From the IMG/VR virus record IMGVR_UViG_2671180680_000012: a stretch of DNA of 7,160 bases; one strand, 5' to 3'. Positions 1 to 6,755 of the stretch are shown here, piece by piece. Under the pieces are notes generated by a model, which did not search any database, was not told where the DNA came from, and saw nothing but the letters and a program-made list of their open reading frames with translations. The stretch is from a virus. Lineage: Duplodnaviria; Heunggongvirae; Uroviricota; Caudoviricetes. The position numbers were made by a program, and so were the translations under genes. The first letter of the stretch is position 1; every line of letters starts with the position of its first letter.

Positions 1-2
1 AG

Positions 3-581
3 GGACAGCTGATAGAAACAGAAGCCACTGGAGCACCTCAAAAACACCATCATACACTAAATCAGTAAGTTGGCAGCATCACCGGGGGCGCAGACCCTGA
101 TTATGTTATCTGGGCGAAAGAAGTTCAGGGTATTAACCGTGCATGGACTTTCAGACACTGGAAAGGCACTGGAACGGTTGGCGTGATGGTGGCGACAAAC
201 GATCCGGAACGCCCGGCCCCGGATGAAAGCGTGATTAACGCAGTCAGGGACCACATCCTTCCTCTGGCACCTGTTGCCGGAAGCGGATTGTATGTATTCG
301 GTGCCACAGAAAAAGTCATCCCGATGACGATTGCATTATCGAAAGACACACCGCAGATCAGGACTGCAATAAAAGCAGAGCTGAATGCACTGATGTTACG
401 GGATGGTGTGCCAGAGGGGCGTATGTATCTGTCCAGAATCAGTGAGGCCATCAGTTTGTCTGCTGGTGAAGTGGCCCACCGGTTAATCGTCCCTTCATCG
501 GATATTGACCTGGGGGAGACCGAGCTTCCGGTGCTCGGCGAGATCACCTGGCAGGCTTATGACCCGGCAAGGAGTAAATAA
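3..581 (+). pseudogene. Baseplate assembly protein J-like (P2 gpJ / Mu gp47 family), 3' part; gene continues upstream of the window and is interrupted by in-frame TAA at 66-68
   Basis: Frame 0 is open 69-581 and encodes GADPDYVIWAKEVQGINRAW...LYVFGATEKVIPMTIAL..., resembling the C-terminal half of J-family baseplate proteins. There is no ATG/GTG/TTG between 69 and GTG 183, so the conserved segment 69-182 cannot be translated on its own. The same frame upstream (3-65) is also open and protein-like. Position immediately 5' of a gpI-like gene matches P2 J-I-H-G order. Confidence 0.55.
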
Positions 582-1171
582 TGGATTCGTTACAGGATGA
601 TTATACAAAGCTGCTGTACGGACTGATGCCGCCGGGGCCTGCATGGTCAGATACCGACGGTGTACTTGACGGTCTGGCACCATCGCTTGTGCGTGTTCAC
701 CAGCGGGCTGATGAACTGGTGATTGAAATCGATCCCGGTCAGTCCACAGAGCTGATTGAACGTTATGAAGAATTGTATGGTTTACCTGATTCCTGTTCCC
801 CTGTCGGAACCCAGACATTACGCCAGCGTCAGCAACGTCTTGAAGCAAAAGCCAATGTGGCTGGTGGCATAAATGAGCAGTTCTTCCTGGATCAGCTTGA
901 GGCGCTGGGATATACCGGCGTAACGATCGAACAGTTCCAGCACTTGGATGCAAGCCCCGATCCGGAATGGGGAGATCGCTGGCGTTATTTCTGGCGTGTG
1001 ACGTTGCCGATGGATGCCGGTGCTCAGTGGCAGACATGCACGGACGCCTGCAACACACCGATCCGGACGTGGGGGGATACGGTTGCGGAGTGCGTGATTA
1101 ATAAATTATGTCCGTCACACACCGTCGTTTTATTTTCCTATCCAGATGAGGATGAAGATGCACAGGATTGA
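581..1171 (+). CDS. Phage tail/baseplate protein, P2 gpI / Mu gp48 / YmfQ-like (DUF2313-type)
   Basis: 196-aa ORF. N-terminus MDSLQDDYTKLLYGLMPPGPAWS...ELIERYEELYGLPDSC matches the pattern I recall for YmfQ/DUF2313 tail proteins. SD AAGGAG at 569-574, 6 nt before ATG 581. Start overlaps the J stop as TAATG (579-583). Confidence 0.8.
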   Translation: MDSLQDDYTKLLYGLMPPGPAWSDTDGVLDGLAPSLVRVHQRADELVIEIDPGQSTELIERYEELYGLPDSCSPVGTQTLRQRQQRLEAKANVAGGINEQFFLDQLEALGYTGVTIEQFQHLDASPDPEWGDRWRYFWRVTLPMDAGAQWQTCTDACNTPIRTWGDTVAECVINKLCPSHTVVLFSYPDEDEDAQD

Positions 1172-2198
1172 TACGCTGACTGCGGTAAAAGATAAGTTTG
1201 GTCCGGGTAAGAACGGATTTACTGACGGAAATCTTCGCACAGGACGTCTTGCTACCTGGCTGAACAGTGCCATGTGGAATGCCATTCAGGAGGAAATCTG
1301 TGGTGTCATTGAGAAGGCCGGGATAGAACTGAATAAAGAAGAACACGACCAGCTATATAAGGCTATATTATTGCTGGTGGGCGGTGCAATTAACGAAGAG
1401 GCATTGCTGATAAAAAATAACCTTTCGGATGTGGAAGACAGGGATGAGGCTGTTGAAAACCTCGGATTAAAACCCACGGTGGATAAGGCAAAAAATGCCG
1501 TTCAGCGTGATGGCGACACCATGACCGGAGAGCTGAAAATCCGTGGTGTTAATGCGCTGAGGATTTTCAACGAAGCTTTTGGCCTGATTTTTCGTCGTTC
1601 GGAAGAGTGCCTGCACCTTATTCCCACCAGTGAAGGTCAGGGGGAAAATGGCGATATTGGTCCCCTGCGCCCGTTCACCATTAATCTGCGGACGGGTGAA
1701 ATATCCATGTCGCATAAAGTGTCTGTTGGCGGTGGTTCGCAGGTCAATGGTGCGCTGGGTATCGGCGTTCAGAACGCCCTGGGGGGGAATTCAATTGTTC
1801 TTGGTGATAATGACACCGGATTCAAACAGAATGGTGATGGCCTGCTGGATGTTTATGCCAATAGCGTGCATGTGTTGCGTTTTCAGAGTGGCAGTATCCA
1901 GAGTAATAAAGCTGTAAACGTTACAGGACGGGTAACACCGTCAGACTACGGAAACTTTGATGCCCGTTACCAGCAGCGAAATGGTGGCGTGCAGGATGTG
2001 CGGTATGGTTATGAAATGTATTACACCCCCGGCAGTAACACCGTTTCGTGGACATTTCGCTCACCTTCGGGACACGGGCTGTCAGGGATATCGATATCGG
2101 ATACCGGCCGTAACTCAGCGGATAACGTCAACGGCGTGTATTACCGACCGCTGCAAAAACTGATTAATGGCACCTGGTATAACGTAGCGAGTATTTAA
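1158..2198 (+). CDS. Tail fibre protein, chimeric: Mu S/e14 Stf-type N-terminal domain fused to a P2 gpH-type C-terminal receptor-binding region
   Basis: ORF open from 1146. Start ATG 1158 preferred because GAGG 1148-1151 lies 6 nt upstream; ATG 1146 and 1152 are alternatives. N-terminus has WLNSAMWNAIQEEICGVIEKAGIELNKEEHDQLYKAI. Downstream has NAVQRDGDTMTGEL, then NALGGNSIVLGDNDTGFKQNGDGLLDVYANS and terminal LINGTWYNVASI, which closely resemble what I recall of the P2 gpH C-terminus. Overlaps the upstream gene by 14 nt. Confidence 0.85.
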   Translation: MHRIDTLTAVKDKFGPGKNGFTDGNLRTGRLATWLNSAMWNAIQEEICGVIEKAGIELNKEEHDQLYKAILLLVGGAINEEALLIKNNLSDVEDRDEAVENLGLKPTVDKAKNAVQRDGDTMTGELKIRGVNALRIFNEAFGLIFRRSEECLHLIPTSEGQGENGDIGPLRPFTINLRTGEISMSHKVSVGGGSQVNGALGIGVQNALGGNSIVLGDNDTGFKQNGDGLLDVYANSVHVLRFQSGSIQSNKAVNVTGRVTPSDYGNFDARYQQRNGGVQDVRYGYEMYYTPGSNTVSWTFRSPSGHGLSGISISDTGRNSADNVNGVYYRPLQKLINGTWYNVASI

Positions 2199-2200
2199 CA

Positions 2201-2746
2201 ATGTTGCATTTAAAAAATATTACGGCAGGTAATCCGAAAACCGCGGAATAATATCAGCTGACAAAACAGTATGATGTCACCTGGCTTTTTTCGGAAGACG
2301 GCAAAAACTGGTATGAAGAACAGAAGAACTTTGCCAGTGACACCATAAAAATGGTTTACACCGGAGACGGGCGCGTGGTGTGGGTCGGTAAGGATGTGAC
2401 AGGCATTGAACCCCGTAACGCCAGTGTTATTGAAGTTCCTGATATTACCGCCAACCGCCGCATTACCGCGCCGGGTTACTGGTTTTACCGCAATGATGAA
2501 TTTGTCTTTGACTACAGACTCAAAGCGGAAGATGAGCGTGATGCCCTTCTGGCTCAGGTCAGTGCCCGGACAGGGGAATGGGAAGAAGACCTGCTGCTGG
2601 GGCTAATCAGCGACGAAGACCGGGAAAAACTGAAAGCGTACCGTATTTACGCGAAATCGCTGCAGGCGATGGATTTCAGCACCATCACTGATAAATCCTC
2701 ATATAACGCCATTGAATGGTCCGTCTCTCCGGAAGGTTCTTCCTGA
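2201..2746 (+). pseudogene. Tail fibre assembly protein (P2 gpG / Mu U type) interrupted by in-frame TAA at 2249-2251
   Basis: ATG 2201 lies 2 nt after the fibre stop. Translation gives MLHLKNITAGNPKTAE-stop-YQLTKQYDVTWLFSEDGKNWYEEQKNF..., matching the conserved N-terminus of P2 G/Mu U chaperones as I recall them. The same frame then runs open to TGA 2744-2746. The ORF track only recovers the restart fragment 2351-2746. Confidence 0.8.
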
Positions 2747-2769
2747 TTTAATTTATCGCGAGAAAAACT

Positions 2770-4038
2770 ATGTCTGTAGTGATATCAGGTGCGCTGACTG
2801 ATGGCGCAGGCATCCCCATGTCCGGATGCCAGATTATTCTGAAATCCCGTGTAAACACCTCAGAAGTGGTGATGCGTACCAGGGCTGATGTAGTGACCGG
2901 AAATAACGGTGAATATTCGTTTGAGGCACAGGTCGGAAAATATTGCGTGTATCTGAAACGGGACTGGCGCGACGAGTACTGTGTTGGCGACATTGCTGTA
3001 TACGACGACTCAAAGCCCGGCACGCTGAATGACTTTCTGATTGCTCCTGATGAGGGCGACCTGAAACCGGATGTCGTCAAACGCTTTGAGGAAATGGTGG
3101 CGCAGGCGCAGCAGAGCGCCGGGGCCGCAGCCGGAAACGCACAGCAGACGGCGCAGGATGTGGCGGCAGCCGCAGGTTATGCCCGCGCAGCAGAGCAGGC
3201 CAAAAATGACATTGATGCTGCGCTGACCGGCACTCTGAAAACGGCTAACCATCTGTCTGAAATCGCAGCAGCAGGCGAAAAGGCACAACAGAAGTCCCGG
3301 GATAATCTGGGGCTGAAAAGTGCGGCCACGATGGAAGCACAGAGCGACATTTACGACCGGACAAAAGGCCGTCTGGCGATACCCGGCGCATTCGGCTTTG
3401 GGTGTGCTTTTCTGCCTGAAGATGTTATCCGTTTTGACACTAAGAGTGATTTCCTGGCCTGGGTAAGGAATGCGCTGCCAGGTGAATATTCCGTTGCTGG
3501 CCCCTACGACATCATCATACCCGACACACGGTTTGAAGGGGTGCTCAGCATCCGGTGGACTGATGCACGCCCTGAGACAACAGAACCGAGGTACAGAGCC
3601 AAATCCCTTACTTTTTACGGCATTAACGGCCCCATTTATCACACCCGCTACTGCTACTGGCCCATATCCAGACTGACTGGCTGGGTGAAAATAAATATAA
3701 CCACAGAAGATATTATTTACAGAATCGTGGCGAGCTCTGTCTGCAACAGATGGGGAGACCCTGACATTGGCGGGCTGATTATTGCTGCGTACCAGGGAGA
3801 AGCTGACGGTGATAAAGTCATCAGACTTGTCAGGGGGCAGTCATACAGAGGCTCACGACTGGGACCGGTGGGGATTTCAGTGCCCAGTACTCCCACCGGA
3901 ACGTATATAGCATCCCCACAATTTTTCATTACGGGATGTTCAGAGCATTCATTACCGGGGTCATATAGCGCCCTGTCCGGGGTGCCGGATGCTCATGTCT
4001 CTGGCGCAATGCCCGGGCTTTTTATTCGCACATCGTGA
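2770..4038 (+). CDS. Side tail fibre protein with lambda Stf-type N-terminal domain (Phage_tail_N-like), Ala/Gln-rich stalk and an unrecognised C-terminal domain
   Basis: 422-aa ORF. N-terminus MSVVISGALTDGAGIPMSGCQIILKSRVNTSEVV...VYDDSKPGTLNDFL parallels the lambda Stf N-terminus as I recall it (MAVKISGVLKDGTGKPVQNCTIQLKA...VYEDSQPGTLNDFL). Followed by an AQAQQSAGAAAGNAQQTAQDVAAAAG low-complexity stalk. Weak SD GAGAAA before ATG 2770. Confidence 0.8.
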   Translation: MSVVISGALTDGAGIPMSGCQIILKSRVNTSEVVMRTRADVVTGNNGEYSFEAQVGKYCVYLKRDWRDEYCVGDIAVYDDSKPGTLNDFLIAPDEGDLKPDVVKRFEEMVAQAQQSAGAAAGNAQQTAQDVAAAAGYARAAEQAKNDIDAALTGTLKTANHLSEIAAAGEKAQQKSRDNLGLKSAATMEAQSDIYDRTKGRLAIPGAFGFGCAFLPEDVIRFDTKSDFLAWVRNALPGEYSVAGPYDIIIPDTRFEGVLSIRWTDARPETTEPRYRAKSLTFYGINGPIYHTRYCYWPISRLTGWVKINITTEDIIYRIVASSVCNRWGDPDIGGLIIAAYQGEADGDKVIRLVRGQSYRGSRLGPVGISVPSTPTGTYIASPQFFITGCSEHSLPGSYSALSGVPDAHVSGAMPGLFIRTS

Positions 4039-4048
4039 GGAATGCACC

Positions 4049-4876
4049 GTGGAAATTAAAAAAATCATTAATCCCCGTTATACCGAAAGTGGCGCAGTAG
4101 ACTGTGACGTTTTTTTTGACGACAGGGACCAGGCAGTCCCCTACACAGCCACCGCTGATGATGTCGCACCGACGGGTCAGCGAATCTGGCAGGAACTGCA
4201 AAGTGGCAAATGGGGTGAGATAGCCCCATTCACTGTGACACCAGAAATGCTGGAAGCGGCCAGAGAGGCCAGACGTCAGGAAATTGAAGCATGGCGCACA
4301 GAACAGGAGGCGAAGCCGTTCACGTTTGAATGGAACGGTCGTATCTGGAATGCTGGCCCCAACTCACTGGGCCGCCTGTCCCCGGTAGTCATGCTGGCAA
4401 AATCTGTCACAGCACAAACNNNNNNNNNNNNNNNNNNNNNNNNNNNNNNNNNNNNNNNNNNNNNNNNNNNNNNNNNNNNNNNNNNNNNNNNNNNNNNNNN
4501 NNNNNNNNNNNNNNNNNNNNNNNNNNNNNNNNNNNNNNNNNNNNNNNNNNNNNNNNNNNNNNNNNNNNNNNNNNNNNNNNNNNNNNNNNNNNNNNNNNNN
4601 NNNNNNNNNNNNNNNNNNNNNNNNNNNNNNNNNNNNNNNNNNNNNNNNNNNNNNNNNNNNNNNNNNNNNNNNNNNNNNNNNNNNNNNNNNNNNNNNNNNG
4701 ATGCCGATAATCAGCAGGTGAAACTGTCGATGCCGGAACTGGAAGAACTGGCGGCAGCAATGGTGCAGGCGCAGGTCGATCGCAACGATGAGATTTATCG
4801 CCGTCAGCGTGAAATGAAAGAGGAGCTGAGTGGTCTGGAGGATTTGGGAACAATTAGAGCGTTTGATGTTACGTAA
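4049..4876 (+). CDS. Putative tail fibre assembly/chaperone protein (assigned by position; interior masked by N-run 4420-4699)
   Basis: In-frame GTG 4049 with SD GAGG 4037-4040 eight nt upstream, directly after the Stf-like stop (TGA 4036-4038). The frame is continuous in register across the 280-nt N-run and ends at TAA 4874-4876, followed by a strong terminator. No recognised P2 G/Mu U N-terminal motif. The ORF-track start ATG 3989 would overlap the fibre gene by 50 nt and is less likely. Confidence 0.5.
   Translation: MEIKKIINPRYTESGAVDCDVFFDDRDQAVPYTATADDVAPTGQRIWQELQSGKWGEIAPFTVTPEMLEAAREARRQEIEAWRTEQEAKPFTFEWNGRIWNAGPNSLGRLSPVVMLAKSVTAQXXXXXXXXXXXXXXXXXXXXXXXXXXXXXXXXXXXXXXXXXXXXXXXXXXXXXXXXXXXXXXXXXXXXXXXXXXXXXXXXXXXXXXXXXXXXXXDADNQQVKLSMPELEELAAAMVQAQVDRNDEIYRRQREMKEELSGLEDLGTIRAFDVT
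4420..4699. other. Run of 280 ambiguous bases (masked sequence or assembly gap) inside the putative chaperone gene
   Basis: Contiguous n characters. Reading frame is in register on both sides, consistent with length-preserving masking. Confidence 0.99.
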
Positions 4877-4922
4877 TTGGTAAGCTGCATCGTGTTAAAT
4901 TGTTACCCTTATTTACAACTAG

Positions 4923-4956
4923 AAAAGCCTCTGACTTCATAATCAGAGGCTTTTTT
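4923..4956 (+). terminator. Rho-independent terminator closing the tail-fibre operon (potentially bidirectional)
   Basis: Perfect 12-bp stem AAAAGCCTCTGA (4923-4934) / TCAGAGGCTTTT (4943-4954), 8-nt loop CTTCATAA, T-run to 4956. Lies 47 nt after the stop at 4876. Confidence 0.85.
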
Positions 4957-4973
4957 GAAATGCACGTGCATTT

Positions 4974-5222
4974 NNNNNNNNNNNNNNNNNNNNNNNNNNN
5001 NNNNNNNNNNNNNNNNNNNNNNNNNNNNNNNNNNNNNNNNNNNNNNNNNNNNNNNNNNNNNNNNNNNNNNNNNNNNNNNNNNNNNNNNNNNNNNNNNNNN
5101 NNNNNNNNNNNNNNNNNNNNNNNNNNNNNNNNNNNNNNNNNNNNNNNNNNNNNNNNNNNNNNNNNNNNNNNNNNNNNNNNNNNNNNNNNNNNNNNNNNNN
5201 NNNNNNNNNNNNNNNNNNNNNN
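4974..5222. other. Run of 249 ambiguous bases covering the predicted 3' 135 nt of ssrA and about 114 nt of the prophage/ssrA junction
   Basis: Contiguous n characters. Visible ssrA sequence begins at 5223, corresponding to tmRNA nt 228. Confidence 0.99.
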
Positions 5223-5450
5223 CGCTTCAACCCCAGGCAGGGCTTCCACGCGATCTCTTTTGGGTTTGACCTCTCTTGATCCCCGTCCTAAGAGCGGAGG
5301 CTAGGGAGAGAGGGCTCTAAGCAGGTTATTAAGCTGCTAAAGCGTAGTTTTCGTCGTTTGCGACTATTTTTTGCGGCTTTTTACGAGGCCAACCGCCCCT
5401 CGGCATGCACCTTGGGTTTCGCAAATCCCGTCGAATCCAGAATCAGCCCC
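5088..5450 (-). ncRNA. ssrA: tmRNA (SsrA). Only 5223-5450 (tmRNA nt 1-228) is visible; the 3' end at about 5088 is inferred from the canonical 363-nt length and lies in the N-run
   Basis: Reverse complement of 5441-5450 is GGGGCTGATT, the mature tmRNA 5' end. Reverse complement of 5329-5361 is GCAAACGACGAAAACTACGCTTTAGCAGCTTAA, encoding the ANDENYALAA tag plus stop. The whole visible stretch matches the E. coli ssrA sequence as I recall it. smpB lies immediately upstream in the same orientation. Confidence 0.93.
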
Positions 5451-5464
5451 AATGTGTAAAGGTA

Positions 5465-5473
5465 AGTATACCA
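5465..5473 (-). promoter_or_regulatory. ssrA: ssrA promoter, extended -10 element (TGGTATACT on the minus strand)
   Basis: On the minus strand TGG-TATACT sits 14 nt upstream of the mature tmRNA 5' end, consistent with a short processed leader. No good -35 hexamer at 16-18 bp spacing, as is typical of extended -10 promoters. Confidence 0.55.
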
Positions 5474-5664
5474 GATTTATGAGCGCCATGACCAGCCTCA
5501 ATGGCGTTATCGTTAAAGATTTAGCACCCATGTAGCCTGATTTTTATTCGATTAAGCAATGGGATGGCAACATTTGTGTCGGATGTGATAGCCAATAAGA
5601 TGTTCATTCGCGCCGCCGGAGAGGGAGGCGCGGTGAGGAACTGGTCAATAATTGGAGTGCAGGT

Positions 5665-6147
5665 TTAACGGTGGGCGTTTTTCATGATACGTGCTTTATC
5701 CACCTGCCATTCGCGTTCTTTGATATCTGAACGTTTATCGTGCTGTTTTTTACCTTTGGCGACGCCGATTTTCACTTTGCACCAGGCATTTTTCCAGTAC
5801 AGGGAGAGCGCCACTACGGTATAGCCTTCTCGATTGACGCGACCGTACAATGAGTCCAGTTCGCGCTGGTTGAGAAGTAACTTGCGGGTACGGGTAGGAT
5901 CGCACACCACATGCGTGGAGGCCACGGCCATTGGCGTGATGTTAGCGCCAAACAGAAATGCCTCTCCGTCACGCAGAAGGACGTAGCTGTCGCTGATATT
6001 GGCTTTTCCTGCGCGCAGGGATTTAACTTCCCAGCCTTGCAGGGCAAGTCCCGCTTCGAACTCTTCTTCGATAAAGTATTCGTGACGGGCGCGCTTGTTA
6101 AGCGCGATGGTCGCTGAACCAGGTTTATGTGCTTTTTTCTTCGTCAT
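5665..6147 (-). CDS. smpB: SsrA-binding protein SmpB
   Basis: 160-aa [56 protein letters not shown]... matches E. coli SmpB as I recall it. Canonical position directly upstream of ssrA on the same strand. Confidence 0.96.
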
Positions 6148-6278
6148 AAGCGTCGTGAATCATCGGTAATCTGAAATCGAAAACACCCCATATCAATCCT
6201 GCGGGGGACAAGGCTCTATCTTAGCATGAACCCGATGTTACCCAGCGCCGGGATAGCGTTTTTTTTACAGCAGGATAA

Positions 6279-6755
6279 ATGATATTATTTGTTGGATTTT
6301 TGTTGATGGAAATAGTTATGCCTCAGATTAGCCGGACCGCACTGGTACCCTACAGCGCGGAGCAAATGTATCAGTTAGTGAATGACGTTCAGTCTTATCC
6401 TCAGTTTTTGCCGGGTTGTACCGGAAGTCGGATTCTGGAGTCCACTCCTGGGCAGATGACTGCGGCGGTAGATGTCTCTAAGGCTGGGATCAGCAAAACG
6501 TTTACTACCCGCAACCAGTTGACCAGTAACCAAAGTATTCTTATGAATCTGGTGGATGGGCCGTTCAAGAAATTGATTGGTGGATGGAAGTTTACGCCGC
6601 TGAGCCAGGAGGCGTGTCGTATCGAGTTTCATCTCGACTTTGAGTTTACCAATAAGTTGATTGAACTCGCCTTTGGTCGCGTGTTTAAAGAGCTGGCGTC
6701 TAATATGGTCCAGGCTTTTACGGTTCGTGCGAAAGAGGTTTACAGTGCTAGGTAA
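6279..6755 (+). CDS. ratA: Ribosome association toxin RatA (PasT/YfjG), SRPBCC/polyketide cyclase-like fold
   Basis: 158-aa [53 protein letters not shown]... matches E. coli RatA as I recall it. Divergent from smpB, as in E. coli. Alternative internal start ATG 6318 (MPQISRT...). Confidence 0.9.

Follow-up and report, generated by a model that had tools for sequence, protein, structure and literature searches.

A probable second tail-fibre cassette of phiP27 type in a prophage remnant at ssrA

Relatives of the cassette and their gene order

Phage phiP27 (NC_003356) is a Stx2e-converting temperate myophage with a Mu-type tail, in which the genes for baseplate J, gp48, the fibre L54, the Caudo_TAP protein L55, a PF08400 fibre (L56) and a DUF4376 protein (L57) are followed by attR. 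L56 and L57, known from annotation, form a second fibre pair. The same layout is found in pPE4 (gp67-70), in Rac-SA53 (tail1-4) and in Escherichia coli FDAARGOS_944 (98.7% DNA identity). Here, the corresponding locus is described in a stretch of 7,160 nucleotides of Caudoviricetes DNA (IMG/VR record IMGVR_UViG_2671180680_000012; hereafter the window), which is the right end of a prophage adjoining the chromosomal genes ssrA, smpB and ratA. Positions 2770-4876 of the window are, with high probability, the second fibre cassette of a phiP27-like temperate myophage, composed of a gene for a trimeric fibre (fibre 2) and a gene for a dedicated DUF4376 chaperone (the partner). An overview of the features is given in Table 1.

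The tail context of the cassette is contractile and of the Mu type, with sheath, tube and homologues of Mu gp44-48. The Mu gp48/YmfQ protein of the window is 98% identical to phiP27 L53. The cassette is placed directly after the first fibre gene (fibre 1) and its Caudo_TAP assembly gene (TFA1) in the Mu-type baseplate operon and is the last element before the attachment (att) site. A sequence-only reading of the window, made before any database search, had proposed that a P2/Mu-type fibre is followed, on the same strand, by a second complete fibre gene and its chaperone gene. The open reading frame (ORF) and Pfam calls agree with it and show a Mu-type set of baseplate, fibre and Caudo_TAP genes ahead of this pair. 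With its start 23 nt behind TFA1, the cassette would be co-transcribed as the last part of the late operon and closed by a terminator just before the att site in ssrA.

Fibre 2 is 40% identical to phiP27 L56 over its full length (residues 1-422), the partner is 74% identical to L57, and the DNA of the junction between TFA1 and fibre 2 is 87% identical. This junction is conserved at 87-88% DNA identity in phiP27, pPE4 and Rac-SA53, with a gap of 23 nt in all four loci where it was measured. The two phages differ in the tip of the fibre, in the length of the stalk, which is about 70 residues shorter in the window, and in the state of the locus, the window copy lying in an IS1-disrupted remnant at ssrA. 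Since the tip is only 33% identical, the receptor is probably not the one of phiP27 L56. In the literature, no functional study of phiP27 fibres or of PF08400 proteins on myophages was found.

The arrangement is already known and does not represent a novel type of module for host range or cargo, because the layout was published with phiP27 and the proteins are annotated in hundreds of public Shigella and E. coli genomes. The earlier reading had seen candidates for a novel host-range determinant in the distal parts of the pair and had itself named full-length homology to a known pair as the finding that would speak against this view; such homology is found with L56/L57 (a pair that is annotated, not biochemically characterised), and the whole layout recurs in phiP27 (L54-L57), pPE4 and Rac-SA53. 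Its description of the position as a terminal accessory slot next to the att site is borne out by SfV and ST64B. In these phages, which belong to the same baseplate family, a single fibre and a Caudo_TAP gene are followed by cargo genes, which is why the second cassette appears to be an optional occupant of the slot.

N-domains like that of fibre 2 are characteristic of side tail fibres in lambdoid phages (309 phage records, most of them lambdoid or Stx phages), and some strains have tandem prophages at ssrA. A second, lambdoid prophage inserted in tandem at this site could thus be imagined as the source of fibre 2 and its partner, which would then be its stf/tfa remnant and no part of the Mu-type module. 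This is very improbable. The tight junction between TFA1 and fibre 2 is conserved in phiP27, pPE4, Rac-SA53 and more than 200 E. coli genomes, which contradicts a separate prophage, and in phiP27 attR directly follows the cassette.

Anchor, stalk and tip of the second fibre

The lambda Stf-type N-terminus that had been noticed in fibre 2 is confirmed by two kinds of match. Residues 1-131 match PF08400 (phage_tail_N) with 212.6 bits (E 2e-63, cutoff 26.6). In a sequence search of the PDB, residues 1-92 align with the solved N-domain of lambda Stf (9e7m, E 5e-17), and residues 1-198, comprising N-domain and coiled coil, with the collar spike gp40 of XM1 (7kjk, E 1e-6); the matches of this search are confined to the N-domain region, with none for the tip. 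A short Ala/Gln-rich stalk, read from the sequence, follows the N-domain. Fibre 2 thus shares with Stf of Ur-lambda the homologous N-terminal collar domain (residues 1-92) and the plan of an anchor, a flexible linker and a trimeric helical stalk. The similarity ends at about residue 110 (tblastn matches cover residues 1-110 only). Unlike lambda Stf, fibre 2 has no gp37 or Phage_fiber match in Pfam and no T4 gp37-like distal region or OmpC-binding tip, its partner is a DUF4376 protein instead of the Caudo_TAP protein Tfa, and the host tail is contractile.

The Stf collar of Ur-lambda is built of twelve N-domains and sits where gpV meets gpM (PMC12617516). In a contractile tail, this docking site on the bare tube would be covered by the sheath or the baseplate. 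In the Vibrio myophage XM1, six trimers of gp40 (PDB 7kjk) bind the neck proteins gp4 and gp5 (PMC10457771). gp40 is the sole solved anchor of this type on a contractile-tailed phage; its N-domain and coiled coil are homologous to those of fibre 2, whereas its distal part is a tailspike. Because this homologous domain of gp40 sits on the neck and matches fibre 2, neck attachment of fibres of this type is plausible in phiP27-type phages. In intact relatives, the 92-residue Stf-type N-domains would form a collar that holds the fibre on the virion, the short helical stalk would project the 218-residue tip, and the tip would bind a cell-surface receptor. A more far-reaching version, which we put forward only tentatively, is that the Stf-type fibre serves as a neck or collar fibre, like gp40 of XM1, and not as one of the baseplate, in a two-tier recognition of the host, its interchangeable PHROG 2636 tip having a fold without solved relative and a generic DUF4376 cap reading the conserved core of this tip and not its variable surface.

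The distal part of fibre 2 had been left without an assignment, and a Pfam search with residues ~205-422 (218 aa) gives no match. The tip belongs, however, to PHROG 2636 (E 4e-107; residues 172-422 against profile positions 311-567 of 568). The tip family comprises 118 clusters in a collection of 5.8 billion proteins, is found in Escherichia, Shigella, Citrobacter and Salmonella, and occurs fused to three N-terminal types, namely PF08400, the P2 H-type PF12571 and a third one. It also terminates the fibres of the lytic Vequintavirinae phage Av-05 and the Stf of the lambdoid SerU-LTIIb. An AlphaFold2 (AF2) model of residues 172-422 is of moderate confidence (pLDDT 77.7). A Foldseek comparison of this model with viral models leads to fibre proteins of Av-05 and Goslar, and the structure search returned no close solved structure. 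The best structural and sequence neighbours of the tip are phage fibre or receptor-binding proteins. We conclude that the tip is a putative receptor-binding domain whose fold has no close solved structure.

A cargo function had also been suggested for the distal parts of the pair. That the C-terminal 218 residues are non-adhesin cargo, such as an enzyme or a toxin on a fibre scaffold, would fit the missing Pfam assignment and the missing close solved structure, but is barely conceivable in view of these top neighbours. No catalytic motif is seen in the tip, and the domain terminates annotated fibres in both lytic and temperate phages, the chaperone gene being next in every locus inspected. Nothing points to a role other than that of a fibre.

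The border between stalk and tip is marked by a junction motif, LSEIAA..AQQ.SRDNLGLKSAATM..QSDIYDRT..L..PGAFGFG, that is common to fibres with the three N-terminal types. DNA similarity of fibre 2 to most E. coli prophages ends at about residue 126. Among 5426 complete E. coli genomes, 224 have the junction between TFA1 and fibre 2. The distal part is shared by only 10 of these (10/224), and the partial E. coli matches listed likewise end at about residue 126 of fibre 2. This distribution suggests that the anchor is conserved together with the tail module and that stalk and tip are exchanged; recombination would be the process that swaps them while the anchor stays in place. The cassette is thereby a clean example of modularity: the anchor is conserved, the tip can be swapped, and the chaperone varies less than the tip. 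Such a modular layout could guide fibre engineering for chassis of the phiP27, P2 or lambda type, and two structural questions become answerable, namely the docking of the PF08400 anchor on a contractile tail and the ligand of the PHROG 2636 tip.

Related cassettes were observed in other settings. An identical block (locus 4440-9785) is found in two E. coli genomes, in one of them behind a P2-type and in the other behind a Mu-type baseplate. It consists of a Caudo_TAP gene, a PF12571 fibre gene with the same tip family, a DUF4376 gene and three more genes including HP1_ORF34. Its presence behind both baseplates implies a movement of entire distal blocks from one tail type to another, with a P2-type anchor able to fill the second-fibre slot of a Mu-type module. 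In E. coli cq9, a P2-like prophage at ssrA encodes a 667-aa PF08400 fibre and a DUF4376 protein after the late control gene D and next to ssrA (locus 3610-6176), a pair that is the same add-on cassette on another myophage chassis. What follows the cassette in E. coli FDAARGOS_944 is not ssrA but a frameshifted ipaH gene (type III secretion system effector E3 ligase; its locus 14590-16231); the prophage of this strain occupies another site and has effector cargo behind its DUF4376 gene.

The DUF4376 partner and the assembly gaps

DUF4376 proteins are a published class of fibre chaperones, shown experimentally in the Alteromonas phages V22 and A5 (PMC7289586, PMC10579305). Activity of the V22 fibre requires gp27, which is no lasting part of the complex, as it does not co-elute with the mature fibre (PMC7289586). 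A5 gp9 and V22 gp27 were modelled as trimeric caps that resemble the intramolecular chaperone domains of T5 and K1F fibres, with three N-terminal beta-strands pairing with the fibre head (PMC10579305).

In the window, the reading of the partner depends on a run of 280 N (4420-4699) within its ORF. This run corresponds to 16 nt, GCATATGGCGTGGGGT, in six closed genomes encoding the identical 422-aa fibre. The second run of the window (249 N, 4974-5222) corresponds to 236 nt, containing TGGTGGAGCTGGCGGGAGTTGAACC, which is taken to be the ssrA 3' end in reverse complement. The flanks of both runs are 99.7-100% identical to the closed genomes. In draft scaffolds of Shigella sonnei, a single N is found precisely at the position of the first run, and protein records derived from draft scaffolds read ...SVTAQT-DADNQQ... 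at this point. The break falls at the border between a copy-variable region and a conserved segment of the DUF4376 gene. Since the closed genomes hold 16 nt where the window has 280 N, the run is an assembly gap and the length of 275 codons, of which about 93 consist of N, an artefact; the ORF is inflated by 264 nt. The sequence-only reading had taken this length at face value and had treated the interval as masked sequence that might reveal a stop codon or a separate gene. The interval could indeed be recovered from the closed genomes, whose sequence contains neither. An inserted element or extra gene within either N-run was ruled out, the closed genomes having 16 and 236 nt and the drafts a single N. 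N-runs are thus not length-preserving, and ORF lengths or frames read across them are unreliable: in a window such as this one, they can be assembly gaps that inflate ORF lengths.

The true partner is a protein of 187 aa that starts at GTG 4049, 10 nt past the stop codon of the fibre gene. This start aligns with those of phiP27 L57 and other homologues; the annotation by the Prokaryotic Genome Annotation Pipeline (PGAP) gives 207 aa from ATG 3989. Among the homologues listed from 1566 clusters, most measure 187-207 aa, partial entries aside, and none is near 275 aa. The partner, also described as unrecognised before, can be assigned. Its two visible halves score 24.1 and 17.0 bits against DUF4376 and stay below the cutoff of 25; filled with the sequence of the closed genomes, it reaches 61.6 bits against PF14301 (DUF4376) at the same cutoff and matches phrog_1141 with E 8e-88. 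The earlier statement that it is not a canonical Caudo_TAP chaperone is correct, as its matches are to DUF4376 only: in the Pfam search, ORF 4049-4876 has no Caudo_TAP (PF02413) match, whereas the upstream gene at 2201-2746 does. A sequence search of the PDB with the partner gave nothing meaningful.

In every inspected locus, a DUF4376 gene of about 190 aa follows the fibre with the PHROG 2636 tip, whatever the anchor type or morphotype. The partner resembles the Caudo_TAP chaperones (lambda Tfa, P2 G, Mu U) in genomic role and position and is of similar size. With V22 gp27 and A5 gp9 it shares the Pfam domain DUF4376, a length of about 190 aa and the position directly downstream of the fibre gene. 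For a 77%-identical homologue of the partner, AF2 predicts three N-terminal beta-strands, helices and two beta-hairpins (pLDDT 92.1), a plan that would fit the two Alteromonas proteins. The cognate fibres, in contrast, are unrelated in sequence, and the link of gp27 and gp9 to the partner is the Pfam domain alone.

Among temperate phages, the partners are 68-78% identical and the tips 32-33%. That the partner is so much more conserved than the tip argues that it recognises a conserved core of the tip and is probably not itself an adhesin. It would trimerise on the tip during folding, as an intermolecular counterpart of the C-terminal chaperone domains of T5 and K1F, and would not determine specificity. 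A co-variation of the N-terminal part of the chaperone with the tip was ruled out, both halves being similarly conserved (64-74% and 73-83% identity).

Alternatively, the DUF4376 protein could be a permanent subunit of the distal tip and act as an adhesin, as gp38 does in T2-type phages or Tfa on the Mu fibre. Databases name it a "tail fiber protein" (phrog_1141, phiP27 L57, Av-05 0077, SerU-LTIIb stf2), and the A5 study places chaperones on the fibre tip, proposing them as transient "caps" (PMC10579305). The alternative is nevertheless unlikely, given that the conservation of partners and tips is the opposite of what would be expected of a specificity determinant and that V22 gp27 does not co-elute with the mature fibre (PMC7289586). 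A dedicated chaperone is the preferred reading of the partner.

State of this copy and neighbouring features

The tail module of the window is decayed. IS1 splits its baseplate J gene, and homology to the phage module begins at base 84. The letters GGCAGCATCACC at the end of the first 83 bases are what we take to be the IS1 terminal repeat. IS1 transposase genes are called at the corresponding place in closed genomes, where a full IS1 is inserted, and the baseplate J gene is intact (360 aa) in E. coli FDAARGOS_944 and phiP27. In addition, a CAA to TAA nonsense codon is located at 2249-2251, which is codon 17 of TFA1; in the alignment it is a single C to T difference from the intact 181-aa gene of FDAARGOS_944. 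Gene callers rescue a 5'-truncated TFA1 ORF of 123-162 aa. Since IS1 truncates baseplate J and TFA1 carries a nonsense codon, the cassette is most likely a relic here that could not be displayed on a virion from this prophage.

A contrasting explanation is that the pair is still used by its Shigella host, arming another prophage or a tailocin in trans or conferring some other benefit. Both ORFs are intact, the identical 422-aa protein is found in many closed genomes and in 723 blocks of a public collection, and related cassettes occur up to seven times per genome. Yet continued use is decidedly improbable. Baseplate J and TFA1 are damaged as described, fibre 2 itself is IS-interrupted or missing in two other S. 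sonnei assemblies, and no sigma-70-like promoter was found in window 2000-4973. Identical and near-identical protein entries carry the name Shigella sonnei, which makes S. sonnei the most likely host, and the wide occurrence may reflect clonal descent and not selection.

Some points weigh against the interpretation as a relic of a collar-fibre cassette with its chaperone. We know of no case in which an Stf-type domain has been seen to dock on a phiP27-type contractile tail. In the literature, no experimental test was found of the PHROG 2636 tip family or of the enterobacterial DUF4376 subfamily. Finally, the intactness of both cassette ORFs, together with an identical fibre in hundreds of assemblies, makes a residual function possible.

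Table 1 Features of the window around the second fibre cassette
Feature	Position	Strand	Evidence
IS1 copy end, truncates baseplate J gene	1-83	.	terminal letters GGCAGCATCACC
Baseplate J (Mu gp47-like), C-terminal fragment	84-581	+	PF04865 Baseplate_J, profile positions 171-255 only
Mu gp48/YmfQ baseplate wedge protein	581-1171	+	PF10076, 89.6 bits
Fibre 1 (baseplate-type), phiP27 L54 homologue	1146-2198	+	phrog_6859, E 2e-209; syntenic with L54
Caudo_TAP assembly gene of fibre 1 (TFA1)	2201-2746	+	PF02413, 75.1 bits on 131-aa remnant
Fibre 2 ORF, 422 aa	2770-4038	+	ORF call
Fibre 2 residues 1-92, predicted Stf-type N-terminal collar (attachment) domain	2770-3045	+	PF08400; PDB 9e7m, 7kjk
Fibre 2 residues 93-204, linker, Ala/Gln-rich helical stalk and junction motif	3046-3381	+	read from sequence
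Fibre 2 residues 205-422, distal tip (presumed receptor-binding), and stop codon	3382-4038	+	
DUF4376 fibre chaperone gene, broken by N-run 4420-4699	4049-4876	+	PF14301, phrog_1141
Intrinsic terminator hairpin ending late operon	4920-4957	+	15-bp stem then U-run, dG (free energy) -20.6 kcal/mol, z -6.7 (folding)
Second N-run, prophage/chromosome junction and ssrA 3' end	4974-5222	.	236 nt in closed genomes
ssrA (tmRNA), visible 5' two-thirds, integration target	5223-5450	-	Rfam RF00023, 84.9 bits
smpB	5665-6147		
ratA	6279-6755		

The hairpin at 4920-4957 was missed by the terminator scan, because its stem reaches into the A and U runs; folding confirmed it. The Rfam match to tmRNA spans window 5212-5397 on the minus strand. 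ARAGORN calls no tmRNA in the window, as the N-run cuts the ssrA gene. In some closed genomes, a second prophage with integrase, DUF2303 and YfdP-like genes lies between the remnant and ssrA/smpB, which indicates a tandem occupation of the ssrA site.

Fibre 1 has a weak gp37_trimer match in Pfam. With 350 aa, it is about 170 nt shorter (window 1891-1926) than its 402-aa homologue in FDAARGOS_944 (its locus 11524-11727), a difference that is an internal length polymorphism. At >=99% identity, the window has matches in thousands of E. coli records, which are attributed to bases 1-83. Two host labels among the database records look doubtful. PP818812.1, "Actinobacillus phage vB_Apl-pPE4", is 88% identical in DNA to the Shigella/E. 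coli module, and OR844957.1, "Enterococcus phage Efm 3-10" (1.8 kb), matches the gp48 gene of the window at 69.6%, the same value as Salmonella phage ST64B.

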